A stretch of DNA of 64,000 bases, taken from positions 26,323 through 90,322 of the forward strand of contig JAUWYY010000008.1 in assembly GCA_030615605.1 (NCBI GenBank). The letters run 5' to 3'. The notes under the pieces are model-generated. The model was not told the origin of the DNA, did no database searches, and was given only the letters and a program-made list of their open reading frames with translations. Positions 1 through 10,429 of the stretch are shown here, piece after piece (within the stretch, counting starts at the first letter, position 1; every line of letters begins with the position of its first letter). This DNA comes from a bacterium. Lineage in GTDB: Bacteria > Armatimonadota > Zipacnadia > Zipacnadales > Zipacnadaceae. The position numbers and the translations under genes were made by a program.

Positions 1-137
1 ACATCCTCGATGAGCATATGCCCCCCAGCTAGCAGTGTCGCCACCGCTAGCTCAACCGTTTCCGTCTTACCGATAATCACTGTCTCGACATTGTCAATCA
101 ACGCTTCAGTGGCCTGGCTGAACTCCAGCTTGGTCAT
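1..137 (-). CDS. MoxR-family AAA+ ATPase, N-terminal part (runs off window)
   Basis: Manual translation from ATG at 137: MTKLEFSQATEALIDNVETVIIGKTETVELAVATLLAGGHMLIEDV, the typical MoxR N-terminus leading into Walker A (LIEDVPGxGKT). Confidence 0.8.
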   Translation of the reverse strand, partial: MTKLEFSQATEALIDNVETVIIGKTETVELAVATLLAGGHMLIED

Positions 138-550
138 TGCTCTCATCGCCTTCTAACTCTAATGTCCCCGCGATACAGGCTAATAATGCCGTCAATATTC
201 ACTGAGCGGAGATTGCGCCTGATATGCGAGCTGGCCGTCTGAGCCATATCGCTATACTTACAGACACCCAGCGCCTGGACAATGTTCGCGAGCTGCTCTA
301 CTGCCGCCACACCGGATTCCAGCAGACTTATTGACCTCAAAGACGCGGTTCATATCTGCCAGCAGTCACCCATGGTAGTCAGACAACAGCTTCTACTGAT
401 ACAGATAGTAGGATGTCTGGTGCTCACAGTCAACCTTGACTGCGGCGGCGTGGTATATTGACGTATCCAGGAAAAAGAATGTATCCTAATACTAGTATAG
501 CGGGATTGTACGTAACTTAAACCGCACCTGCAGACGAAAAGGGGGCTGCT

Positions 551-1444
551 ATGAGCGCGAGGTATTCCTGGCTAGTTGTTATCATTTTGGTCGGTGCAAG
601 TCTGTCAATTGCTTCGGCGCAAGATATGAGCGGTGCCATCGAGCAGGTCAAGGAAAGCGTGCTGACCATCAAGAGCGGCGAGCGGGTTGGAGCCGGCTTC
701 ATTGTTAGCCCTGACGGGCACGGCTTGACCAGTGCTCATCTGGTTGGCGACAATTCCCAGGTCACCGCAGTGCTGGCCAATGATGAAGAGCTGGACGCGA
801 AGGTGACGAAAACAGATGCGGCGCTCGACCTGGCACTCATCAAGCTGGATCTGCAAAATCTGCCGGCGGTTCGCTTTGCTCCCAGCAGCGAGCTGAAGCA
901 GGGCGCACGGGTAGCGGCGTTGGGCGCGCCGCTGGGCCTGGAAGGCTCGGTTAGCGAGGGAATTGTCAGCGCGTTGGAGCGGGAGGTGAAGGGCAAGCGC
1001 TACCTGCAAATCGACGCTGCCCTCAATGAGGGTAACTCCGGCGGCCCGGTCATTGATGAGCATGGACGCGTGGTGGGTGTGGCCACGGCGGTGGTTAAGG
1101 AGGCGCAGAATGTGGGCTTTGCAGTACCCAGCGACGCGGCCATTGCCTTTTTGCAGGAGGCTGGGGTGCTGCTTAGTCTGCCGTTGGGCCAGCAAGGGGC
1201 CGCTGCCGTTAAGAGACCCACAGGTGGGCCGGCCAGGCTGCCAGCCCCGCCTGTGGTGAAGCAAGCTGAGCCTGCGTGGTTGCTGCTGGTGGGTATTCCC
1301 TTTGCGGTGGCCCTGGTAGTTTCGCTGCTGGTTTCGCTGCTGGTGACTCGCCGGATACGCCACCGCCTCGCCGAGCCGGAGATAAGTCTGGCTCCAGCCA
1401 GCGAAGACGAAGACCTGTCTGATGTTGATATCACATTGCACTGA
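551..1444 (+). CDS. Trypsin-like (S1C/HtrA-type, no PDZ) serine protease with signal peptide, C-terminal TM helix and acidic cytoplasmic tail
   Basis: GAGFIV, TSAHLV (His), DLALIK (Asp), GNSGGP (Ser); N-terminal hydrophobic signal; TM WLLLVGIPFAVALVVSLLVSLLV followed by RRIRHR. Confidence 0.9.
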   Translation: MSARYSWLVVIILVGASLSIASAQDMSGAIEQVKESVLTIKSGERVGAGFIVSPDGHGLTSAHLVGDNSQVTAVLANDEELDAKVTKTDAALDLALIKLDLQNLPAVRFAPSSELKQGARVAALGAPLGLEGSVSEGIVSALEREVKGKRYLQIDAALNEGNSGGPVIDEHGRVVGVATAVVKEAQNVGFAVPSDAAIAFLQEAGVLLSLPLGQQGAAAVKRPTGGPARLPAPPVVKQAEPAWLLLVGIPFAVALVVSLLVSLLVTRRIRHRLAEPEISLAPASEDEDLSDVDITLH

Positions 1445-1491
1445 CAGTGGTTAGTGGACAGTGAAGAGCGACGGCAGGGCGCAGGTGGGTA

Positions 1492-1525
1492 TTGCCAGCA
1501 ATGACATTCTTGTCGCATAATTATG
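1492..1525 (+). promoter_or_regulatory. Candidate sigma70 promoter for the Ubl gene, with overlapping palindrome
   Basis: TTGCCA (1492-1497), 18 nt, CATAAT (1516-1521); palindrome CATAATTATG 1516-1525; GGGAGG RBS before ATG 1557. Confidence 0.4.
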
Positions 1526-1556
1526 ATAACGCGATCCAACCAGGGAGGTTCGTACA

Positions 1557-1826
1557 ATGGGCAAAGTGACCGTGACTGTACTGGATGCCACCGGCTCCAA
1601 GGAGCAGAAGGCCAGCCTGCCGGATGACGCACCGGTGCGGCGAATAATCGGCAAGCTTATCGAGATGATGAAGCTGCCGTCCACCGGCCCCGACGGCCAG
1701 CCGATGAGCTACAAGTTCCATCATAAGGCTTCGGGGAAACAGCTCACTGACGACCAGACGCTGGCCGACGCCGGCGTCAAAGACGACGATGTCCTGCGCC
1801 TCCAACCGGAGATAACAGCGGGGTAG
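1557..1826 (+). CDS. Ubiquitin-like beta-grasp protein (YukD/EsaB-like) with C-terminal Gly
   Basis: 89 aa; ubiquitin-fold signature GKQLTDDQTLADAGVKDDDVLRL (cf. ubiquitin [23 protein letters not shown]); ends ...QPEITAG*; strong RBS. Confidence 0.9.
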   Translation: MGKVTVTVLDATGSKEQKASLPDDAPVRRIIGKLIEMMKLPSTGPDGQPMSYKFHHKASGKQLTDDQTLADAGVKDDDVLRLQPEITAG

Positions 1827-1872
1827 CTTCGTCTCGCAAGTCTGCATATTCGGCACAGGGAAGTGACGGACA

Positions 1873-2964
1873 ATGGGCACATATCGCATTGGTGCCGACG
1901 GGCGCCTGACGGAATACCAACCCCAAGTCTTGAGCGATGAACATTGTGAGGAAGAGTTCAAAGACTGGCTGGAGCAGAATCCTCAGATGCTCATTGACGA
2001 CGAGGATGTCCTGTGGATTGGCCGAGAGGTCACCACTGAACTGGGCAAATCGGTGGACCTGCTGGGGTTGGATGAGCGAGGTCAGATTCTCGCTGTCGAA
2101 GTGAAGGCCGGGACCTCACCCCGCACTGTGATCGCTCAGGCCCTGGAATATGGTGTCTGGGCGGATGGGCTGGCTTATGAAGATCTGTGGCGTATAGCAA
2201 AGGATTACTGGAGGAGAAAAAGCGGAGATTTGGACTGGATCCCAGCAGGCAGCGAGCATGATATACCCGATCTCTCCGAGGGATTCGAGGTCTACTTCGA
2301 TGAGAAGCGCGAGATTCCGGCCCGACAAACCGTCATCTATGTGGTCGCTCAACGCATGGCCGAAGACATCCAGAGAGTTGCCCACTGGCTGCGCAAGCAC
2401 GGCATCGATGTTCGGTGCCTAGAGTTTACGTATCACGAGGGAGAGAAGAAAACCGATCACCTGCTGACCACCACGTTGACTGTGGGACAAGTGAGTCTTC
2501 CGGAATCAGGGCGCGGTCCAATTGACCGAGAAACGTTTCTGCAGCGTTTGGAGGAGGATGCCGACCGAGGGGCCGTCGAGAGGCTGATTGATGCCCTGGA
2601 GCGAATTGTGGACGAACATCGAGAATTGTGTACGGCAGGGTATCGCACCTCCAACTGGGTCTTCGAGGTGCATCCACCGGGCGAAAAGGCAGCCGGTGTG
2701 TTGTACATCGGCGAAGAGCAGGTGAGCCCACGCTTTGACTACATGATAAGAAGAGAAGTACCTCGAAAAGTCTGGGAGGGCTACCGCGACCGCCTCTACG
2801 ACTACGATGATGCGGCACCATGGGAACCCTCCCCACAAGGCGAAGAGGAACCAGAACTCCATGGGTTTCGCCTGCCTTGCCGTGAGGACCTATTGACCGC
2901 CGAGCACAAGAACATTGTGTCCGCGGTGGAGTGGCTGGTGGAGCAGTTGGCTGCTCTGGAATGA
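1873..2964 (+). CDS. NucS/DUF91-like PD-(D/E)XK endonuclease domain protein
   Basis: E..F..WL..NP, IGRE, VDLLGLD...AVEVK...IAQALEY match the NucS-like restriction-endonuclease fold; C-terminal region not recognised. Confidence 0.75.
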   Translation: MGTYRIGADGRLTEYQPQVLSDEHCEEEFKDWLEQNPQMLIDDEDVLWIGREVTTELGKSVDLLGLDERGQILAVEVKAGTSPRTVIAQALEYGVWADGLAYEDLWRIAKDYWRRKSGDLDWIPAGSEHDIPDLSEGFEVYFDEKREIPARQTVIYVVAQRMAEDIQRVAHWLRKHGIDVRCLEFTYHEGEKKTDHLLTTTLTVGQVSLPESGRGPIDRETFLQRLEEDADRGAVERLIDALERIVDEHRELCTAGYRTSNWVFEVHPPGEKAAGVLYIGEEQVSPRFDYMIRREVPRKVWEGYRDRLYDYDDAAPWEPSPQGEEEPELHGFRLPCREDLLTAEHKNIVSAVEWLVEQLAALE

Positions 2965-2974
2965 TTGATTGCCG

Positions 2975-4162
2975 ATGACTGAGGACCAGATTCTCGACAT
3001 TGATCTTGAAGAGGGGCGGTATCATCGGCTGGAGCTGATTCCCTGGTGGGATCAACAGCGGTTGTTTGACGCGCGGGTGATGGTGGTGGGCGCCGGGGCG
3101 CTGGGCAACGAAATCCTCAAGCAACTGGCCCTGCTGGGGGTGGGTAATATCTATGTGGTGGATATGGATACTATCGAGGAGTCTAACCTGACCCGGGCGG
3201 TGCTGTTCCGCGAGAAAGACGAGGGCCAGCCCAAGGCGGAGGTAGCTGCCCGCGCGGTGACCGAGCTGAATCCGGACATCAAGGTGCAGAGCTTTGTGGG
3301 GAATGTCGTCTATGACCTGGGCGAAGGCATCTTTCGGGATATGGATATCGTGCTGGGCTCGCTGGATAACCGTGAAGCGCGCGTGGCGATAAATCAGAGC
3401 TGCTGGAAGCTTAACAAGCCGTTTGTTGACGGAGCCATTGAGGTAATCCAGGGCGTGGCGCGCATCTTCTGTGGGCCGGAGGGGCCGTGTTATGAGTGCA
3501 CGATGAACGAGAAGGACTACGAGCTGCTCAGCCAGCGCCGCTCCTGCGCGATGCTGTCTCGTGACGATATCGTGCGGGGGCACATACCAACCACTCCGAC
3601 CACCGCTTCGGTGATTGCTGGAGTTCAAACTCAGGAGGCCATCAAGTGGCTACATCGCGACCGGGAAATGCCGCTGCTGCTGGGTAAAGGGTTTGTCTAC
3701 AACGGGTTTAGCAATGAGTCGTATATCATCGAATATCAGCGCCGCGCGGATTGCCCCGCTCATATCACGCTGCCGCCGCTCCAGGACCTGGACAAGTCGG
3801 TTGATACGGCCACAGTTGGCGAGATGCTGGAGCTGGTCAGATCGGAGGTCGGCCCCGAGGCGGTGCTGGAGTTTGAGCGGGAACTGTGCATCGGGCTGTA
3901 CTGTCCGAACTGTGACGAAAGCGAGCCGGTATTCCGCTCACTGGGCAAGCTGCGCGAGGCGGAGGGGCGCTGTCCGCACTGTCACGAACTGCGCGACCCG
4001 GAACTGACCCACGCTATCTATGGCGATGAGGATTATCTGGATAGAACGCTGGCGGATATGGGCCTGCCGCCGTACGATATTGTGATTGGCCGGGACGGGC
4101 TTGAGGTAGCAGCCTTCGTATTGGCTGCCGACCGGGAGACTGCCGTGGGCTGTCTGGCTTGA
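2975..4162 (+). CDS. E1-like ubiquitin-activating enzyme (ThiF/UBA family) with C-terminal Zn ribbon
   Basis: VVGAGALGNE, DMDTIEESNLTR, LDNREAR, CYEC...CPAH Zn site, candidate catalytic Cys in RRSCA, C-terminal CPNC/CPHC. Confidence 0.92.
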   Translation: MTEDQILDIDLEEGRYHRLELIPWWDQQRLFDARVMVVGAGALGNEILKQLALLGVGNIYVVDMDTIEESNLTRAVLFREKDEGQPKAEVAARAVTELNPDIKVQSFVGNVVYDLGEGIFRDMDIVLGSLDNREARVAINQSCWKLNKPFVDGAIEVIQGVARIFCGPEGPCYECTMNEKDYELLSQRRSCAMLSRDDIVRGHIPTTPTTASVIAGVQTQEAIKWLHRDREMPLLLGKGFVYNGFSNESYIIEYQRRADCPAHITLPPLQDLDKSVDTATVGEMLELVRSEVGPEAVLEFERELCIGLYCPNCDESEPVFRSLGKLREAEGRCPHCHELRDPELTHAIYGDEDYLDRTLADMGLPPYDIVIGRDGLEVAAFVLAADRETAVGCLA

Positions 4163-4183
4163 TGATTCTGTTCTTAGGGACGA

Positions 4184-5218
4184 TTGACTATGAATGATGA
4201 GAAGCGTGCTAAAACTGACGACAATGATCAGGTTGGCATCTCTCTGCAGCCGCCGCGAGAGTCGTCTGGCTACGGGGGGAGAGATGTAGTGGTCATGGTG
4301 GCCGAATCGGTGCTGGAGGAGGTGCGCCGCCACGGCCAGCAGGATACCTCCCGCGAACAGGGCGGCATCCTGGTGGGCACGGTAGCCTCCAGTCAGGACA
4401 AGGTTTACGTGAATGTGGAGGCAGTGATAGCTGCGCCCCAGACCCGAGCAAAGCGCACCAGCATCACCTTCACTCACGATAGCTGGGCACATATCAATCA
4501 GGTCAAAGATAGCGACTATCCCGACCAGGACATTGTGGGCTGGTATCACACCCACCCGGGTTTCGGGATATTTCTGTCTGACTATGATACTTTCATCCAT
4601 CGCAACTTCTTCCCGGCGGCCTGGCAGGTGGCGTTGGTAATTGATCCGCTTTCCGACGAGTCCGGTTTCTTTGTTTGGAAAGGCAACGAAATTATCCCGC
4701 GCAAGCAATACAATGTATTCAGTCCGCTGGTTGCGCCCGCCAAGCCGGTGGCCGCAGAGCCGGCCCCGCTGCCGGCCGACCTCGTGGCTCCACCGATGCC
4801 CCGGCGGGCCAGCATTGTTACGGTGGTGGTCCTGCTGGTGCTGGCCTTGCAGGTAGTTACGCTTCTGGCGCTTTTCCGGAAGCCGGCCGCGATTGTGGAG
4901 TCATCGGGTCAGCCTGCCCAGTTGGCAGCGCAGGTCGGCAGACTGGAACAGCAGATTACCGAAACGCAGGCACGGGTCGAGGAATTGGACAAGGCCCGGC
5001 CAGCGGCCAGTAGCGCTGAGGCTGGTCCTGAGTATGAGTGGTATGAAGTCAGATACGGCGACAGTCTGTGGAAGATTGCCAGGGAGCACTATGGCGACGG
5101 CACAAAGTACACAATTATTGCCGCTGAGAACGGAATCGCACTTCCCAGGGCAATAATCAATCCCGGGCAGAGACTACGGTTGCCGAATGTGGCAAAGGAG
5201 AGCCGTGGCGCCGAATGA
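4184..5218 (+). CDS. JAB/MPN+ (JAMM) isopeptidase fused to TM helix, coiled coil and LysM domain
   Basis: EQGGIL...GWYHTHPGFGIFLSDYD (E...HxHx7Sx2D); TM IVTVVVLLVLALQVVTLLALF; LysM YEVRYGDSLWKIAREHYG...INPGQRLRLP. Start could be ATG 4190. Confidence 0.9.
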   Translation: MTMNDEKRAKTDDNDQVGISLQPPRESSGYGGRDVVVMVAESVLEEVRRHGQQDTSREQGGILVGTVASSQDKVYVNVEAVIAAPQTRAKRTSITFTHDSWAHINQVKDSDYPDQDIVGWYHTHPGFGIFLSDYDTFIHRNFFPAAWQVALVIDPLSDESGFFVWKGNEIIPRKQYNVFSPLVAPAKPVAAEPAPLPADLVAPPMPRRASIVTVVVLLVLALQVVTLLALFRKPAAIVESSGQPAQLAAQVGRLEQQITETQARVEELDKARPAASSAEAGPEYEWYEVRYGDSLWKIAREHYGDGTKYTIIAAENGIALPRAIINPGQRLRLPNVAKESRGAE

Positions 5219-5945
5219 CGACAGCGCAGAACTGGAGATCGAGATTGAGCAAGCGCCTGCCACGGAGCTGGCGCAGGGGCCTGATCCCGCCGACGAGGAA
5301 GGGCGGTCCCTGCTGAAACTGGGACAGCCTGGCGGGCAGCAGCGTGTTTTCATGGCTTATGCCTGCCTGAAGCAGATGCTGGCTCATACCCAGCGGAATC
5401 TGGACGCGGAAATTGGCGGGATTCTGCTGGGACGGATCTTTCGCAGCGATAAGGGAATCGTGACAATTCTGACGGAGGCGGTGGCGGCGGTTCGCACTGA
5501 TGCCGGCCTGGGCCATGTGACCTTCTCACACGAGACCTGGGCCGACCTGTACCAGTATCTGGAGTCGCTGGCCACTGATACCGATATCGTCGGTTGGTAC
5601 CACACCCATCCCGGGTTGGGTGTGTTTTTCTCAAGACAGGACAGGTTCATCCAGGAGAATTTTTTCGGCGGGCCCGGACAGGTCGGCATCGTGGTTGATC
5701 CCGTCGCGGATAGTGTCGTGCTGTTTATGTCTCATGAGGGCGAGACGGCCGCCTGCAATGGCTTTTGGGTGACGGGTGCCGAGGAGGATGTGCCGGCTGC
5801 CCGCCAATTGATAGCCAAACTTACCTACGCAAAGCAAGAAGCGGCCCGAGGCGGCTGGCTGGAGAGTTGGGGCCAGAGGTTACAGGGGGCGTTGGGCCGC
5901 AAGCAGCCTGCCGAGCAGCCGGTGGCCGACGATGAGGAAGCCTAG
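5205..5945 (+). CDS. JAB/MPN+ (JAMM) isopeptidase
   Basis: EIGGILLG...GWYHTHPGLGVFFSRQD; GTG 5205 preceded by AAGGAG. Confidence 0.9.
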   Translation: MAPNDDSAELEIEIEQAPATELAQGPDPADEEGRSLLKLGQPGGQQRVFMAYACLKQMLAHTQRNLDAEIGGILLGRIFRSDKGIVTILTEAVAAVRTDAGLGHVTFSHETWADLYQYLESLATDTDIVGWYHTHPGLGVFFSRQDRFIQENFFGGPGQVGIVVDPVADSVVLFMSHEGETAACNGFWVTGAEEDVPAARQLIAKLTYAKQEAARGGWLESWGQRLQGALGRKQPAEQPVADDEEA

Positions 5946-5952
5946 ATAGACT

Positions 5953-6480
5953 ATGAATGCAAGACTGCGCCGACTGTATGCTGACTATCAACAGGTCCAC
6001 AGTGACTTTGCGGGGCATCCCTATGTTGATGTCGAGCCGATTCGGGGTAATCCCCCCGAGGCCTACCGGATCAGCTATCATATAAAGGGCCTGGAGCTGG
6101 ATCAGGCCAGCAATCGCCCCCGGGTCAGAACCGAGCATATGGCCACTATTTACCTGCATCGCGACTACCCGCGCGAGAAGCCCAAGTGCGTGCTGGAGAC
6201 GCCAATCTTCCATCCGAATTTCGGCTCCTACATCTGCATTGACGACTACTGGGCGGCGGGAGAGACACTGGCCGATGTCATCATCCAGATCGGGCAGATG
6301 ATTCAGTATCAGAGCTACAATCCCAAAAGTCCGCTGAATGCGGTGGCCGCGCGCTGGTGCCAGCAGAATGAGCATCTCCTTCCCATCGGCGATGCTGATC
6401 TGTACCAGCCGGAGCTGGATATTGATTTGCTTGGTGATGGCAAGCTGGGTGAAGAGGAGATCGAAATAGAGTTGTTATAG
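5953..6480 (+). CDS. E2-like ubiquitin-conjugating enzyme (UBC fold)
   Basis: N-terminal RLRRLYADY helix, DYPREKP, TPIFHPNFGSYICID (HPN motif plus catalytic Cys), NPKSPLNAVAA. Confidence 0.92.
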   Translation: MNARLRRLYADYQQVHSDFAGHPYVDVEPIRGNPPEAYRISYHIKGLELDQASNRPRVRTEHMATIYLHRDYPREKPKCVLETPIFHPNFGSYICIDDYWAAGETLADVIIQIGQMIQYQSYNPKSPLNAVAARWCQQNEHLLPIGDADLYQPELDIDLLGDGKLGEEEIEIELL

Positions 6481-6523
6481 TGCCGGCGCTGAGTCGTGCC
6501 CAGCGGAATATCGCAGGACACAG

Positions 6524-7270
6524 ATGGAGTTGTCCAGAGTGCGTTGCCCTTACTGTCATGAGAATATCACAGTCCAGGGCCGGTTTTGTCCGAAGTGTGG
6601 CGACCAGATATTCGGGCGGCCGGTTGCGCGTGGTGGCACGGAGCCGTCGCAGCCGGCCTCTACGCCCAGCTCGTGGCAGGCTCCTTCTCCGCAAGCCGGC
6701 GGCGATGTTCTCGACATTGAGTTGGAGGACGCTGCTGAGGCTGTCGGTGCTTCAGATAATGCCGTCGGCCAGATGTGTCCGTTCTGCCGGTTTCCCATTA
6801 AAGAAGGCGAAGAGGTAATCACCTGCCCGGACTGCCAGACCACACTGCACGCCGACTGCTGGCGAGAGAATGACGGATGCACCACCTACGGCTGCTCCAG
6901 CTCGCCCCAGGCAGCAGCCGTTCGGCGTACTACGGGGCAGGCTGCGCGCGGTGGCCGCAGTTGGCCTGGGTTCGGTGGCACAACGCCGGGGACGATACCG
7001 ATGCCGCTGGGCGCTCGCCAGTTGCTCGAAGCCGAATTCGAGGGCCAGGGCACCAATGTGCTGCTGTTCGCCATCCTGCAGATTCTCTTCTGCGGGGGAT
7101 TGCTATCAATTATTGCCCTGGCCTGGAGTATATCGCTGCTTTCGCAAATGAAGCGGTTCCAGCTCCGCACCTCAAGGGGGCGGAACAAGGCGATTGCGGC
7201 TGCAATTATCAGTGGGATAGTGACTCTGGCATGGCTTATAGGGATTGCCTGGCCGCTTATCGGCAGGTAG
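6524..7270 (+). CDS. Zn ribbon + prokaryotic RING finger + C-terminal TM helices (candidate membrane-anchored E3 ligase)
   Basis: N-terminal CPYC..CPKC; RING-like CPFC-x12-CPDC-x4-HxxC-x6-CxxxxC; C-terminal hydrophobic helices resembling DUF4190. Confidence 0.8.
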   Translation: MELSRVRCPYCHENITVQGRFCPKCGDQIFGRPVARGGTEPSQPASTPSSWQAPSPQAGGDVLDIELEDAAEAVGASDNAVGQMCPFCRFPIKEGEEVITCPDCQTTLHADCWRENDGCTTYGCSSSPQAAAVRRTTGQAARGGRSWPGFGGTTPGTIPMPLGARQLLEAEFEGQGTNVLLFAILQILFCGGLLSIIALAWSISLLSQMKRFQLRTSRGRNKAIAAAIISGIVTLAWLIGIAWPLIGR

Positions 7271-7301
7271 TGGCGGTAGTCTTCTTGGGGGCCCACATCG
7301 T

Positions 7302-7928
7302 ATGGGTTACGAAGACCCTGAAATCGAAATCAGCTCAACCCAGTCGCCGGAGCCGCTTAAGCGCCGGCGGCCGGGTCCGCCGCTTGCTGTAGTCGGTGAG
7401 GTAGGCGCGCCGGCCGGGAAAGGGGCGATCTTTCTGCATCTGGAGGCCATCGGGGCGATAGTTGATTCCTTGCCCGGCCAAGAGCAAATGGAGGTAGGCG
7501 GGCTGCTGGTCGGCAGGGAGTGTGAGGATGAGGCGGGCGTCTATCTGCTGGTAGCTGGCGCGATTCCGGCCCGGCAGGCAAGAGGCACCTCGGTGTCGGT
7601 GACTTTTACTCACCAGACCTGGAATCAGTTGTCTGCTGAAAAAGTAAGCCGCTACCCGGATCAAGCGATCGTCGGCTGGTATCATACTCATCCGGGGCTG
7701 GGTGTGTTCCTTTCCGAGCGCGACCTGTTCATCCACCGCAATTTCTTTGCCGACAGCACTCACATAGCTGTGGTGATTGACCCGTCCAAGTTTGCCTGGG
7801 GCATATTCTACTGGCAGGACTCAGACCTGGTAGCTGCGCCGGGTTGTTACATATATGGGGAGCCTGCCGAGAAACATGAGCGACTGTCTGAACTACTGCC
7901 CCGCTACCAGCCCAGCCATATGCAATAG
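7302..7928 (+). CDS. JAB/MPN+ (JAMM) isopeptidase
   Basis: EVGGLLVG...GWYHTHPGLGVFLSERD; ATG 7302. Confidence 0.9.
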   Translation: MGYEDPEIEISSTQSPEPLKRRRPGPPLAVVGEVGAPAGKGAIFLHLEAIGAIVDSLPGQEQMEVGGLLVGRECEDEAGVYLLVAGAIPARQARGTSVSVTFTHQTWNQLSAEKVSRYPDQAIVGWYHTHPGLGVFLSERDLFIHRNFFADSTHIAVVIDPSKFAWGIFYWQDSDLVAAPGCYIYGEPAEKHERLSELLPRYQPSHMQ

Positions 7929-7938
7929 GTCGTCGGGT

Positions 7939-8010
7939 GTCGTTGCGCCTGTCGTTGTACCTGTCGTTAGACCTGTTGTTCTACCTGTCGTTTTGCCTGC
8001 CGTTCCTTGT
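7939..8010. repeat. Six imperfect 12-bp tandem repeats (consensus GTCGTTnnACCT)
   Basis: gtcgttgcgcct/gtcgttgtacct/gtcgttagacct/gttgttctacct/gtcgttttgcct/gccgttccttgt. Confidence 0.85.
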
Positions 8011-8102
8011 GTCTGACTTATCGTGAAGGTTTCACCTCCCACCGAGGAGAAGAGTTGACCAGTGGCGTAAGCATCCAGAACTGAGGAGGAAAGGATATCA
8101 AA

Positions 8103-8894
8103 ATGACAATTACGAGGTATCTACCGATAATTGTTGCCTTGCTGATGAGTGGCGCAGTATGGGCGCAGGAAGGGGCGGCGCCACCTGCCAGCGAAGAATT
8201 GCCCGCTGAGGAAACACAACCGGTAGCCAAAGACAGGGTGACAGTGCAGACTATCACATCGTACCTGGACCGAATGAACTACGTCTACAAACTGGACAAG
8301 TCGGTAAAGGTGCCCGAGATTGAGCTGCTTATGCGCGGAGACAATGCCAATTACCAACTGCGCATATTCATTGACGACCCCCGCAAGGTCGTCTACATGT
8401 GCATAAATCGGCTGATGACCATTCCTGATTCACATCCCCGCAAGAGTGCTGTGCTCCAGAGGTTGATGGAACTTAACTGGGAGCTTTTAATTGGCAAGTA
8501 TGAATGGGACAAAAGCGACGGGGAGGCGCGGCTCTCCTACACATTCAGTACGGAAAACGGCCTGGGCTATGAGGCTTTCGTGGCGTGCTTCCAGCTCCTG
8601 GTGCTGACCGCCGACCGAGACTATCCCAAGCTTATGAGACTGATATGGGCCCCAGAGGAAAAGCCAGCCGAGCCGCTTCCTGTGGGTACGCCTGAAGAGG
8701 GTGCCAAAGAGAAGGTTACTGCGCCCAAAGAAGAGACTCCTGCCAAGGAAGAGGCTCTCTCTAAGCCAGAAGCTCCGACCAAGGAGGAAGCTCCCCCCAA
8801 GGGAGAAGCTCCCTCCAAGGAAGAAACTGTAGCCGAGCCAGAAGCTCCAGCCCAGGAAGAAGCCCCCTCCGGACAAGAGACCGAGGCGGAATAG
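8103..8894 (+). CDS. Exported YbjN-like (T3S-chaperone fold) protein with acidic/Pro repeat tail
   Basis: Signal peptide (AVWA/Q); core LMELNWELLIGKYEWDKSDGEARL resembles the YbjN family; C-terminal 6-aa KEEAP-like repeats. Confidence 0.6.
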   Translation: MTITRYLPIIVALLMSGAVWAQEGAAPPASEELPAEETQPVAKDRVTVQTITSYLDRMNYVYKLDKSVKVPEIELLMRGDNANYQLRIFIDDPRKVVYMCINRLMTIPDSHPRKSAVLQRLMELNWELLIGKYEWDKSDGEARLSYTFSTENGLGYEAFVACFQLLVLTADRDYPKLMRLIWAPEEKPAEPLPVGTPEEGAKEKVTAPKEETPAKEEALSKPEAPTKEEAPPKGEAPSKEETVAEPEAPAQEEAPSGQETEAE

Positions 8895-8908
8895 GTGAGC
8901 CAGCGATT

Positions 8909-10429
8909 ATGACTACGTCAAGCGGTTCGAAAAAACTGTGGAGCGGGCGATTTTCGGGCGATTTGGCTGATCTGGGCTTGCAGTTCAGCGAGTCTACTGC
9001 CGCCGACCGTCCGATGATTGACGAAGATATCTGGGGCAGCCAGGCCCATAGCATAATGCTGGCGGCCTGCGGAATTATCAGCGAGGCCGACCTGCGGGCG
9101 ATACTGGGCGGCCTGGCCCAGATCCGCCAGCAGTTCGCCGACGGCCAGTTTGATCTGGACCCGCAGCTCGAAGATGTCCACATGAATGTAGAGAGCCGTC
9201 TGCGGGAGATCATTGACCCGGAGGTAGCCGGCCGGCTGCATACAGCCCGCTCGCGCAACGATCAGGTGGTCACCGACGCCCGCATGCACCTGCGCACGAG
9301 TCTCCTGGAATTGCGTCAGGCCCTGGCTGACCTCCAGCAGACGCTGCTGGATTTGGGCGCAGAGCACCTCGAGACGGTGATGCCCGGCTATACCCATACC
9401 CAGCATGCTCAACCCATTTCGGTGGCCTTCTGGCTGTCGAGTCATGCCTCAGCGCTGCAGCGCGATAACCAGCGGCTGGCTCAGACATATGAGCGGATGA
9501 ACCGCTGCCCGCTGGGAGCTTGCGCTCTGGCGGGAACTTCATTTCCCATTGACCGGCAGATGACGGCCCGGCTGCTGGGTTTCGACGGCGTTATCGAGCA
9601 TGCTCTGGATGCGGTTGGCTCGCGCGACTTCGTGCTGGAGACGCTGGCGGATCTGGCCATAGCTGCCAGCAACCTGTCCAGGCTGGCTGAGGAGCTGGTG
9701 CTGTTTTCTACCCACGAATTCGGCATGATTGAGATTGATGACGCCTACGCCACGGGCAGCTCGATAATGCCACAAAAGAAGAATCCCGGTATGGCGGAGC
9801 TGACTAGGGCCAAAACCGGCCTGGCCTACGGCCGGCTGGTGCAGGCACTGACGATGATAAAGGCGCTCTCCTCGGGCTACAATCGCGACCTGCAGGAAGA
9901 CAAGCCGCCGCTGTGGGAGTCGCTTGATTCGGTGCAGAGCTGTGTGCGGATGATGACGGCAATGGTCAGCACGTTGAAGCTACGTCCTGAGCGGATGGCC
10001 GAGCTGGTCGAGGGCAATTATGCGGCGGCCACCGAGCTGGCCAACTTTCTGGTGCGCGATCACAATCTGCCGTTTCGCGACTGTCACCGTATCGTCGGCC
10101 ACCTCGTCGGCATACTGCTGGAGGAGAAGCGACTCCTTACTGATTACGGACGTGTCAGCGAACTGCTGGCAGACGCGGGTCAGGAGGTCAGCGAGCAGCA
10201 ACTGGCCGAAGTATTGGATGCACAGGCTATTCTGCATCGACAGGTAAGCCAGGGCAGCACGGGCGTAGAAGCGACTGCCGCCATTATTGAGAAATTGCGC
10301 GAGGCGATAGCGGATAACCGCGGCGAGATTGCTGCCGCGCATCAAGCGCTCACCCAGGCCCGCCAGCAAACCGACCAGATAATCGAGCATATTCTAGAAG
10401 GCGGAGAGCTGACGGAGCTGAAACTCTAG
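8909..10429 (+). CDS. argH: Argininosuccinate lyase
   Basis: KLWSGRF, EDVH, HTARSRNDQ, GSSIMPQKKNP, YNRDLQEDK. Confidence 0.97.
   Translation: MTTSSGSKKLWSGRFSGDLADLGLQFSESTAADRPMIDEDIWGSQAHSIMLAACGIISEADLRAILGGLAQIRQQFADGQFDLDPQLEDVHMNVESRLREIIDPEVAGRLHTARSRNDQVVTDARMHLRTSLLELRQALADLQQTLLDLGAEHLETVMPGYTHTQHAQPISVAFWLSSHASALQRDNQRLAQTYERMNRCPLGACALAGTSFPIDRQMTARLLGFDGVIEHALDAVGSRDFVLETLADLAIAASNLSRLAEELVLFSTHEFGMIEIDDAYATGSSIMPQKKNPGMAELTRAKTGLAYGRLVQALTMIKALSSGYNRDLQEDKPPLWESLDSVQSCVRMMTAMVSTLKLRPERMAELVEGNYAAATELANFLVRDHNLPFRDCHRIVGHLVGILLEEKRLLTDYGRVSELLADAGQEVSEQQLAEVLDAQAILHRQVSQGSTGVEATAAIIEKLREAIADNRGEIAAAHQALTQARQQTDQIIEHILEGGELTELKL

Follow-up and report, generated by a model that had tools for sequence, protein, structure and literature searches.

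A predicted ubiquitin-like conjugation system with putative membrane-anchored components in Armatimonadota and other bacterial phyla

Nine co-oriented genes and their predicted products

The 64,000-nucleotide (nt) stretch of DNA analysed here, referred to throughout as the window, comes from contig JAUWYY010000008.1 of a bacterium assigned to the phylum Armatimonadota (assembly GCA_030615605.1). Between positions 551 and 7928 it carries nine open reading frames (ORFs), whose predicted products include the parts of a ubiquitin-like conjugation system: a ubiquitin-like protein (Ubl), a separate E1 and E2, a candidate RING E3 and three JAB peptidases, together with a serine protease (SerP) and a nuclease-like protein (Nuc). 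All nine ORFs lie on the plus strand, neighbours either overlapping slightly or standing 4-112 nt apart, in the order SerP-Ubl-Nuc-E1-JAB1-JAB2-E2-RING-JAB3, and each was found where an initial annotation of this DNA had placed it. The genes are as follows, with protein lengths in amino acids (aa):

551-1444, plus strand: SerP, 297 aa; Pfam Trypsin_2, 3.4e-33
1557-1826, plus strand: Ubl, 89 aa; Pfam YukD, 2.7e-14, with weak ubiquitin and Rad60-SLD matches
1873-2964, plus strand: Nuc, PD-(D/E)xK nuclease-like, 363 aa; weak Pfam NucS_C match (0.0025)
2969-4162, plus strand: E1, 397 aa; Pfam ThiF, 1.5e-56
4184-5218, plus strand: JAB1, 344 aa; Pfam JAB, 3.2e-10, and LysM, 1.7e-10
5187-5945, plus strand: JAB2, 252 aa; Pfam Prok-JAB and JAB
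5953-6480, plus strand: E2 (of the type called E2a below), 175 aa; Pfam UQ_con, 2.2e-9, 37.5 bits (cut-off 27)
6524-7270, plus strand: RING E3 candidate, 248 aa; Prok-RING_1 (PF14446), 1.5e-11, 44.5 bits against a cut-off of 29.1, with an N-terminal zinc ribbon
7245-7928, plus strand: JAB3, 227 aa; Pfam JAB, 1.6e-9

For none of the nine proteins (0/9) did an NCBIfam model reach its cut-off, and E2, RING and JAB3 had no match to that collection at all. Hydropathy placed transmembrane segments in SerP, JAB1 and RING and in none of the other six proteins, and no CD-NTase was found among the Pfam or PADLOC matches of the ten proteins scanned. Together with the motifs described below, these results bear out the earlier description of the locus as a full Ubl-E1-E2-RING-JAB set with three membrane-anchored members and no CD-NTase.

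The Ubl had been annotated as a beta-grasp protein ending in glycine, and its AlphaFold2 (AF2) model, built from an 18-row alignment, indeed has the beta-beta-alpha-beta-beta arrangement of a beta-grasp fold at a predicted local distance difference test score (pLDDT) of 90.6. Its C-terminus reads ...LRLQPEITAG, an Ala-Gly and not a Gly-Gly end, and G89 (nt 1821-1823) is presumed to be the C-terminus that is activated. Foldseek ranked ubiquitin variants, ubiquitin, the ubiquitin of Caldiarchaeum, a bacterial (Bil-type) Ubl (8tyx), NEDD8 and SUMO as its best matches, with TM-scores of about 0.72. We found that 17 orthologues from several phyla, mostly 89 aa long, are 60-96% identical to the window copy, and that the alignment contains 22 invariant columns, among them K15, K57 and G89, the last unchanged in all 18 sequences. 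The ...PEITAG end is kept across phyla and closes the ORF in 11/15 Armatimonadota loci; in the remaining 4/15 it is followed by 1-6 residues, and extensions also occur in some rows of the wider set described below, a pattern that, as far as these sequences go, fits processing by a JAB peptidase.

One alternative reading is that the Ubl is a YukD-like adaptor that is never conjugated, as in type VII secretion, and that the E1, E2 and RING-like protein are degenerate or otherwise employed. YukD is the best Pfam match of the Ubl, its sole NCBIfam match (far under the cut-off) is to the ubiquitin-like domain of EccD, and several of its partner proteins are in the membrane. Set against this are a C-terminal Gly and ...PEITAG tail that are invariant or nearly so across phyla, the intact and conserved catalytic cysteines of E1 and E2, HPN motif and JAMM motifs, a fold search headed by ubiquitin, NEDD8 and SUMO, and neighbours among whose Pfam annotations no type VII secretion gene appears. 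We regard the adaptor reading as very improbable.

In E1, the adenylation and cysteine motifs that had been reported were all located: GAGALGNE (41-48), LDNREAR (132-138), CYEC (174-177) and C193 within RRSC (nt 3545-3547), the last being the candidate catalytic cysteine on the strength of the alignment. Across 29 aligned sequences G41, G43, G46, R76, D133, C174 and C193 are invariant. Sequence searches of the PDB gave UBA7, UBA1 and UBA3 at about 1e-30 and MoeB at 2.7e-23. The AF2 model (29 rows, pLDDT 89.2) is low only at the N-terminus and at residues 190-197 (below 50), and the low confidence of this second segment, which carries Cys193, is what a mobile crossover loop would be expected to give in such a model. 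A beta-rich C-terminal domain (approximately 271-397) is confidently modelled, and zinc-type CxxC pairs are present; UBA3 was the best full-length Foldseek match, while MoeB and ThiF fitted the adenylation core.

The E1 also raises the reading that the system makes a sulfur carrier of the ThiS/MoaD type, the E1 adenylating the Ubl so that it can be thiocarboxylated for the synthesis of cofactors or amino acids and a JAB peptidase processing it. The NCBIfam models for ThiF, MoeB and SAMP-E1 match E1 at 1e-34 to 1e-44, each under its cut-off; MoeB and ThiF are the best structural fits to its adenylation core; and JAB and E1 pairs of the sulfur-carrier kind do exist, including one elsewhere in this genome. 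That second E1 gene (MoeB/ThiF-like) overlaps a small JAB gene at G000:C50:8093-9335, and the two look like a separate sulfur-carrier-type pair. Known ThiS/MoaD carriers occur with an E1 and sulfurtransferases and have no E2 or E3, whereas this cluster encodes a UBC-fold E2 with HPN...Cys, a RING protein and three JAB peptidases, which have no place in sulfur transfer. The E1 carries no rhodanese or sulfurtransferase domain in the Pfam scan and is nearer by sequence to UBA7, UBA1 and UBA3 than to MoeB, the Ubl resembles ubiquitin and not ThiS or MoaD in the fold search, and the genome has separate MoeB/ThiF-like genes. The probability that we attach to the sulfur-carrier reading is lower still than that of the adaptor reading.

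The E2 contains HPNFGSYIC at residues 87-95 (nt 6211-6237). The HPN (87-89) and the cysteine (Cys95) of the initial annotation are thus present, but their spacing is HPN-x5-C and not the HPN-x6-C it had given. H87, P88, N89 and C95 are invariant in 27 homologues, and the best PDB matches by sequence are UBE2D2/3, at about 1e-5. Homologues fall into 334 clusters, with 55-91% identity across the 119 other clusters listed; wherever they are named they are labelled Armatimonadota, and the closest named records are metagenome-assembled genomes (MAGs) of Candidatus Zipacnadia, a class of that phylum (83-90%).

For the RING candidate, the predicted zinc-binding character was upheld by a Prok-RING_1 match above its cut-off and by eight zinc ligands, spaced C-x2-C-x13-C-x2-C-x4-H-x2-C-x6-C-x4-C in C4HC3 order at residues 85-124 (nt 6776-6895). 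The same Cys/His pattern recurs in 56/60 of the RING-family matches listed, and hydropathy places two C-terminal transmembrane helices at residues 179-197 and 223-241. Each of the three JAB proteins carries E-x-GG-[IL]-L-x-G and H-x-H-x7-S-x2-D, so that the JAMM motifs of all three annotated proteases are intact. Among PDB entries JAB2 matched Rpn11 (4.9e-10), the Rpn11-like protein of Caldiarchaeum (2.2e-8) and CSN5. JAB2 and JAB3 appear soluble, with no transmembrane segment by hydropathy; JAB1 has a single transmembrane helix (residues 211-229, also by hydropathy) between its JAB domain and a C-terminal LysM domain, a layout that would put the JAB domain in the cytoplasm and LysM on the peptidoglycan side.

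SerP combines a signal-like segment (residues 5-23), a transmembrane helix (247-265, by hydropathy) and a 32-aa cytoplasmic tail. The annotated serine protease assignment agrees with its Trypsin_2 match and its H63/D93/S163 triad, which is invariant in 16 orthologues, and the NCBIfam matches to degP/htrA/DegS are all under cut-off. By sequence, SerP would be an HtrA/DegS-like trypsin-fold protease with an extracytoplasmic protease domain and a cytoplasmic tail, and its gene adjoins that of the Ubl in 10 Armatimonadota loci.

Distribution of the cluster and its inserts

We surveyed 301 sampled Armatimonadota genomes for E2 matches at E <= 1e-5, counting as strong those with a best E <= 1e-44. 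Matches occurred in 42/301 genomes and were strong in 30/301. By family, referred to here by working numbers, the E2 was present in all sampled genomes of f1 (7/7), f2 (2/2), f4 (7/7) and f5 (1/1), in 2/3 of f15 and in 10/15 of f27. Strong Ubl profile matches were likewise found in 30 genomes, 29 of which coincide with the strong E2a set; the exception (G219) has a contig that starts 2.9 kb before E2. A second E2 paralogue (E2b), 33-43% identical to E2a by tblastn, occurs in 13 genomes, lying 4-8 kb upstream on the same contig in 9 and on another contig in 4. E2b keeps HPN and the cysteine, has a longer HPN-to-Cys loop and lacks the acidic C-terminal motif described in the next section (for example L034:8825-9385 and L045:7007-7594); the genome of the window has E2a only.

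Genes in these relatives were picked with the guidance of conservation, their starts being set mechanically. The survey of gene neighbourhoods showed the cluster to be co-conserved in other genomes, in several layouts:

Family f4: unknown 900-aa protein-E2b-SerP-Ubl-E1-(HicB-like)-JAB-E2a-RING, with one or two RING genes
One genus of f27: RmlD-IleRS-DksA-LspA-DUF1648-Lgt-E2b-SerP-Ubl-E1-JAB-RING (three or four)-E2a-JAB-FHA-RING
Family f15: E2b-Ubl-E1-JAB-JAB-RING(s)-E2a-FHA
Other genera of f27: minimal Ubl-E1-RING-JAB-E2

The flanks recur as well, and the genes in them are of housekeeping type. In the window the cluster is followed by a YbjN-like gene and then by argH, pyrK and pyrD (from the ORF list and Pfam); argH adjoins the cluster both there and in the same-genus locus L033, and lies near it in L049. 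In three loci of one family (L042, L045 and L046) rmlD-ileS-dksA-lspA-lgt lie upstream of the cluster. The window's cluster has no FHA gene, and an FHA-family match is found elsewhere in the genome (C1:14078-15409, 1.1e-23). The genome's sole match to PF00227, the proteasome/HslV family, is at G000:C50:120180-120695 (L132), and it may be HslV, because the same model also matches the E. coli and B. subtilis controls.

A wider scan, with one genome per species, returned at least 446 stretches encoding a relative of E2, the best 80 of which were used; these are the top tblastn matches to a single query, they carry taxon labels given by submitters, and many lie on short contigs. Using hidden Markov models made from the Armatimonadota proteins, we found clusters of the form SerP-Ubl-E1-JAB-FHA-RING-E2 in records labelled Bacillota (Tindallia, Anoxynatronum and Syntrophomonas), Planctomycetota, Acidobacteriota and Verrucomicrobiota. 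Among the best 80 loci, all five core families were present in 42 and at least four in 53, SerP in 38 and FHA in 33. The architecture is therefore widespread across several phyla and not confined to this genome, and its novelty is correspondingly lower than the initial annotation had implied. Carriers in culture include isolates of Anoxynatronum (L084 and L094) and a planctomycete whose genome is complete.

In a quick maximum-likelihood tree of E1 (47 rows), phylum labels required 7 changes against a minimum of 6 and a mean of 22.2 for shuffled labels, and Armatimonadota (13 rows) and Acidobacteriota (5 rows) each fell on one side of a branch. Some bins among the wider loci look mislabelled. 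The clusters of L091 and L092, labelled Chitinophagales and Methylocystaceae, group with the Syntrophomonas record on this tree, and these MAG contigs may be mis-binned or transferred.

The nuclease fared differently. The gene that had been annotated exists, and its product has a PD-(D/E)xK motif (D62...E76-x-K78), but it is not a conserved member of the system, being missing from L033 and from all other loci compared. In L033, which reads SerP-Ubl-E1-JAB-JAB-E2-RING-JAB-YbjN-ArgH, E1 lies directly 3' of Ubl, and tblastn with Nuc gave no match at any other cluster locus compared and one 31% paralogue elsewhere in its own genome. For Nuc, the match to the PADLOC candidate PDC-S11 (1.2e-30) covers only positions 23-181 of the 358 in the profile, for which PADLOC sets no curated cut-off. 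Judged by these sequence comparisons it is a genome-specific insertion and no part of the conserved system, which therefore has eight genes here and not nine. At other loci the slot between Ubl and E1 holds a 388-aa unknown protein (L056, 4501-5667) or a potassium-channel-like protein with TVGYGD (L074, 2784-3653), and in family f4 (L034, 11992-12369, and L037) E1 and JAB are separated by a HicB-like gene. The operon thus seems to tolerate foreign genes at fixed slots.

Such inserts bear on the strongest rival explanation, in which the chemistry is the same but the role is anti-phage or conflict defence, as in Bil and type II CBASS, with the Ubl tagging invader proteins or arming an effector (the protease, or the inserted nuclease). 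Besides the HicB-like gene within the f4 clusters and the match of Nuc to PDC-S11, PADLOC models for E1-E2, BilD and JAB match E1 and the JAB proteins at the domain level, and the phylum distribution is patchy at the level of families. Defence proteins evolve fast, whereas the Ubl of this system remains 60-96% identical across phyla; the nuclease occurs in one genome only, the E1 tree largely keeps phyla together, several families have the system in all of their sampled genomes, and its chromosomal site is conserved beside argH or ileS-lspA-lgt. The PADLOC matches to E1 and the JAB proteins are also generic, with none on Ubl or E2 and a chance-level one on RING (HEase, E 0.051). The literature offers the defence reading some precedent: characterised bacterial E1/E2/JAB systems act in phage defence according to a passage of PMC11601603, and a passage of Kaur et al. 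(PMC7159879) places complete Ubl-E1-E2-RING-JAB sets inside vWA-MoxR-FtsH conflict systems. On balance we hold a defence role to be unlikely, though well ahead of the adaptor and sulfur-carrier readings, and the distribution, as read from these sequences, fits a cellular function conserved within lineages better than it fits a mobile defence system.

Several further features lie around the cluster. Promoter-like sites were found at 458-487 and 1492-1521 in a promoter and terminator scan; terminator-like hairpins from the same scan were set aside, as their positions fall within JAB coding motifs. In Rfam, positions 1-9000 gave nothing credible, the sole match, to a lncRNA model, scoring 23.8 bits (E 0.068) where the cut-off is 60. 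Between JAB3 and the YbjN-like gene, at 7938-7997, a 12-nt unit (TGTCGTTGnnCC-like) occurs five times head to tail; these repeats could be a protein-binding array or a product of slippage. The YbjN-like gene itself (window 8103-8894) is kept 3' of the cluster in the same genus only, and its product combines a signal-like N-terminus with a long tail rich in Pro, Ala, Lys and Glu.

A short acidic motif in tails and linkers

A short acidic motif, phi-[DE]-[IV]-x-[LIF], is shared by all seven conserved enzymes, in every case within a terminus or linker. E2 at its C-terminus and SerP at the end of its cytoplasmic tail have the same strand-like form, D-[LIV]-[DE]-I-[DETQ]-L, and both proteins have another copy further upstream. 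The copies are:

SerP, nt 1376-1438, plus strand: PEISL (residues 276-280) and VDITL (residues 292-296, one residue before the C-terminus), in the cytoplasmic tail
E1, nt 2993-3007: LDIDL (residue 9), N-terminal
JAB1, nt 4232-4246: VGISL (residue 17), N-terminal
JAB2, nt 5232-5246: LEIEI (residue 16), N-terminal
E2, nt 6415-6429 and nt 6460-6474: LDIDL (residue 155) and IEIEL (residue 170), in the acidic C-terminal tail
RING, nt 6710-6724: LDIEL (residue 63)
JAB3, nt 7317-7331: PEIEI (residue 25), N-terminal

The seven enzymes, 1,940 aa in total, contain the pattern [LIVP][DE]I[DETS][LI] 8 times, against a background of 68 times in 767,071 aa (1,787 genome ORFs of at least 250 aa), which is approximately 46-fold lower, and the motif is absent from Nuc and Ubl. 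In the SerP tail D291, I294 and L296 are invariant in 16 orthologues. A DNA repeat finder also picked out the motif-coding DNA of E1 and RING, window positions 2991-3012 and 6708-6729 being 82% identical over 22 nt. In the Armatimonadota loci a looser pattern recurs in the same places in SerP (10/10), E1 (13/16) and FHA (6/7); in housekeeping neighbours it was found in 0/27 proteins, plus 1/5 for one further family. Many E1 proteins have, by eye, a shorter phi-D-phi-D-L form just before a conserved EDRY.

The possibility that the motif is a general degron or tag was ruled out: its stricter C-terminal form is found in only 6/13,956 genome ORFs, two of the six being E2 and SerP. The YbjN-like protein has a match to the shared motif, VPEIEL at residue 71, which is possibly due to chance.

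SUMO, Atg8 and UFM1 are known to be bound in their beta2/alpha1 groove by short acidic strand motifs (called SUMO-interacting motifs, SIMs, for SUMO and LC3-interacting regions, LIRs, for Atg8), and the Ubl is the one partner that E1, E2, E3 and deubiquitinating enzymes (DUBs) have in common. Complex prediction gave weak support for docking of the motif on the Ubl. The SerP tail (266-297) with the Ubl scored an ipSAE of 0.42 in 3/3 runs, the best of three controls reaching 0.01; the runs agreed in at least 84% of contacts, and the partner pLDDT was at least 72. The mark used for such predictions was reached by 58/80 solved complexes and by 2/110 mismatched pairs, and at an ipSAE of 0.60 or less by 7/80 solved complexes and by both passing mismatches. 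A result of this grade is more often wrong than right unless the interaction is likely beforehand. Helix 1 of the Ubl has R28, R29 and K33 in clusters that bear the motif and mostly N-K/R and V in clusters without it; this difference also follows phylogeny and is thus weak evidence for docking.

Several observations, in addition to the grade of that prediction, run counter to a docking function common to all the enzymes. The looser pattern is uneven within the Armatimonadota, occurring in 19/29 E2 proteins (and in no E2b-type tail), 16/31 JAB proteins and 10/36 RING proteins. In its strict form the motif is found, among the 80 wider loci, in 35/88 E2 tails, 22/39 SerP tails and 5/56 E1 N-termini, and clusters from Planctomycetota, Acidobacteriota and Verrucomicrobiota have E2 and SerP tails without it. 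With ORF starts in the relatives set mechanically, N-terminal motifs may moreover be missed or spurious. We therefore put forward only tentatively, at a little under even odds, that the motif is a SIM-like Ubl-docking motif that binds the Ubl; if confirmed as such, it would offer a way to search for readers and substrates.

Proposed role and relation to known systems

Combining these results, our main reading, to which we give a probability of roughly 0.65 leaving aside the partner of the motif, is that the cluster encodes a genuine ubiquitin-like conjugation system that works at the cytoplasmic membrane in a lineage-conserved cellular role. From sequence and predicted folds, an E1-E2-RING conjugation cascade with JAB reversal is highly probable. 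That membrane or envelope coupling matters for function is somewhat favoured, and a housekeeping role is preferred to defence by a similarly slight degree. Membrane or envelope protein quality control or signalling is the most likely role, mobile phage defence a less likely one; the cellular role is favoured because the system is present across whole families in a fixed setting of housekeeping genes, the Ubl is nearly invariant and the E1 tree follows phyla.

In the model that we chart for this system, the 89-aa Ubl would be made with its glycine exposed, a JAB peptidase first trimming a short extension in some relatives. E1 would adenylate Gly89 with ATP and carry the Ubl as a thioester on the crossover-loop Cys193, from which it would move to Cys95 of E2. 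The membrane RING protein would then present the E2~Ubl to membrane- or envelope-associated proteins at their cytoplasmic parts, where lysines would be tagged, and the three Rpn11-like JAB peptidases would remove the tags. A link to the envelope could be provided by the membrane-tethered JAB1, with its LysM domain on the peptidoglycan side, and by the HtrA-like protease, which would lie outside the membrane with a cytoplasmic tail bearing the acidic motif common to E1, E2, RING and the JAB proteins. The SIM-like motif may gather all of these players, the protease included, around the Ubl.

A number of points weigh against parts of this reading. The system is present in only about one tenth of the sampled phylum genomes, family f3 of the same order has the E2 in 0/10 genomes, and most other families have none; this, like the acceptance by the operon of foreign inserts (the PDC-S11-like nuclease, the HicB-like gene and others), speaks against a purely housekeeping role. 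The tree sample is biased, since its loci are the best matches to one query and carry submitters' labels. The RING protein had no significant sequence match in the PDB, and its assignment depends on one Pfam model. The full-length Foldseek alignments of E1 to UBA3 have root-mean-square deviations above 10 A, which bears on the assignment of its C-terminal region as a ubiquitin-fold domain (UFD). A passage of Chambers et al. (PMC10557695), finally, predicts that the uncharacterised Ubl/E1/E2/RING/DUB operon families are antiviral.

A broader form of the proposal would have several phyla (Armatimonadota, Bacillota, Planctomycetota, Acidobacteriota and Verrucomicrobiota) share an ancient and mostly vertically inherited 'bacterial ubiquitin' of 89 aa with its own E1, one or two E2s, families of membrane RING E3s and Rpn11-like DUBs, serving housekeeping, ERAD-like or envelope-signalling tagging (ERAD, endoplasmic-reticulum-associated degradation), with a link to the wall through LysM-JAB and the HtrA-like protease and a SIM-like motif on every enzyme. 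We consider this full picture doubtful. If true, it would be a bacterial counterpart of the eukaryotic ubiquitin network and not another phage-defence module, and it would touch on the view that archaea are where complete ubiquitin toolkits arose. Full cascades of E1, E2, RING and DUB are generally regarded as a feature of eukaryotes and archaea. The window is a clean, intact example of a family that is neither rare nor sporadic in some lineages, with a tag conserved like ubiquitin and machinery built around the membrane, and since cultured carriers exist (the Anoxynatronum isolates and the planctomycete with a complete genome), the use of a full bacterial ubiquitin cascade is directly testable.

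The cluster belongs to a kind of system that has been foreseen. Burroughs, Iyer and Aravind, in Mol Biosyst in 2011, reportedly predicted prokaryotic Ubl-E1-E2-RING-JAB systems with YukD-like Ubls, and a C-terminal UFD on E1 is said to be among the features they gave. As the initial annotation had noted, such operons were predicted by comparative genomics, and passages in PMC7159879 and PMC10557695 cite Burroughs 2011 for them. The window has the same set of components in one conserved neighbourhood (a beta-grasp Ubl with its glycine, a ThiF-type E1 with its cysteine, an HPN E2, Prok-RING_1 and intact JAB domains), and nothing defining differs; as it does not fit Bil, type II CBASS, Bub or sulfur carriers, we place it in the predicted kind. 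Its housekeeping-like, lineage-wide presence in Armatimonadota, the regular protease, FHA and LysM partners and the shared motif may be new. Literature searches found no experimental study of this family, in keeping with the view that the architecture lacked experimental characterisation; on Armatimonadota and ubiquitin they returned nothing on this system, the text of PMC7203096 being without the word 'ubiquitin' and PMC11354881 naming the phylum for MOCS3 scores only; other searches led for the most part to papers on eukaryotes or effectors.

Passages of several papers set the bacterial context. In Grau-Bove et al. (PMC4327156) a complete ubiquitin toolkit is reported from none of the bacterial genomes surveyed; those bacterial systems that have been studied experimentally (CBASS Cap2, Bil and Bub) are described in passages of PMC11601603 and PMC10557695 without a RING E3; and Chambers et al. 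(PMC10557695) describe RING-type E3s as rare in bacterial operons, and the operon families as uncharacterised. Bil (BilABCD, types I and II) also has a separate E1, E2, Ubl and JAB-type DUB, and our Ubl has a bacterial Ubl-DUB structure (8tyx) among its leading fold matches. It differs in having no RING E3, in its gene order (Ubl-E2-DUB-E1 in a passage of PMC10557695, against Ubl-E1-JAB-JAB-E2-RING-JAB here) and in being sparse where the present system is lineage-conserved; the only PADLOC match of Bil kind is a weak one of BilD to E1 (1.4e-6), with none on Ubl or E2 and generic matches on the JAB proteins. Type II CBASS Cap2/Cap3 shares the E1, E2 and JAB chemistry, and the PADLOC 'E1-E2' (Cap2-type) models match the adenylation domain of E1 at up to 1.4e-19; here, however, E1 and E2 are separate proteins, there are a dedicated Ubl and RING, and no CD-NTase appears among the Pfam and PADLOC matches. 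Bub (6E/DUF6527; a passage of PMC11601603) likewise has E1, E2, Ubl and peptidase in one operon and is proposed to act in stress response, whereas the window has a canonical UQ_con E2, a RING protein and JAMM peptidases, with no DUF6527 match in the Pfam scan.

Eukaryotes have membrane RING E3 pathways, such as Hrd1 and Doa10 in ERAD and the MARCH proteins, and their SUMO enzymes carry SIMs. The proposed system would be alike in outline, with a membrane RING, a soluble E2~Ubl, tagging of the cytoplasmic faces of membrane proteins and acidic strand motifs; this is an analogy, and homology is proposed only for the RING, E2, E1 and Ubl folds.

The ubiquitin operon of Caldiarchaeum subterraneum (Aigarchaeota), which has the same parts and was reconstituted in vitro (a passage of Hennell James 2017, PMC5654768), encodes together, as does the window, a ubiquitin-like protein, an E1, an E2, a small RING E3 and an Rpn11-like JAB peptidase. 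Its ubiquitin superposes on the model of the window Ubl with a TM-score of about 0.72 at 27% identity, structures of ubiquitin with Rpn11 are available (6fno and 6fj7), and trimming of a precursor by the JAB peptidase is plausible in those of our relatives whose Ubl has an extension. The present system differs in being bacterial, in a Ubl that ends in Ala-Gly and is mostly made without a propeptide, in the membrane anchoring of the RING proteins (1-5 paralogues per cluster) and of one JAB protein, and in the company of an extracytoplasmic protease, often an FHA protein and, in many relatives, two E2 paralogues.

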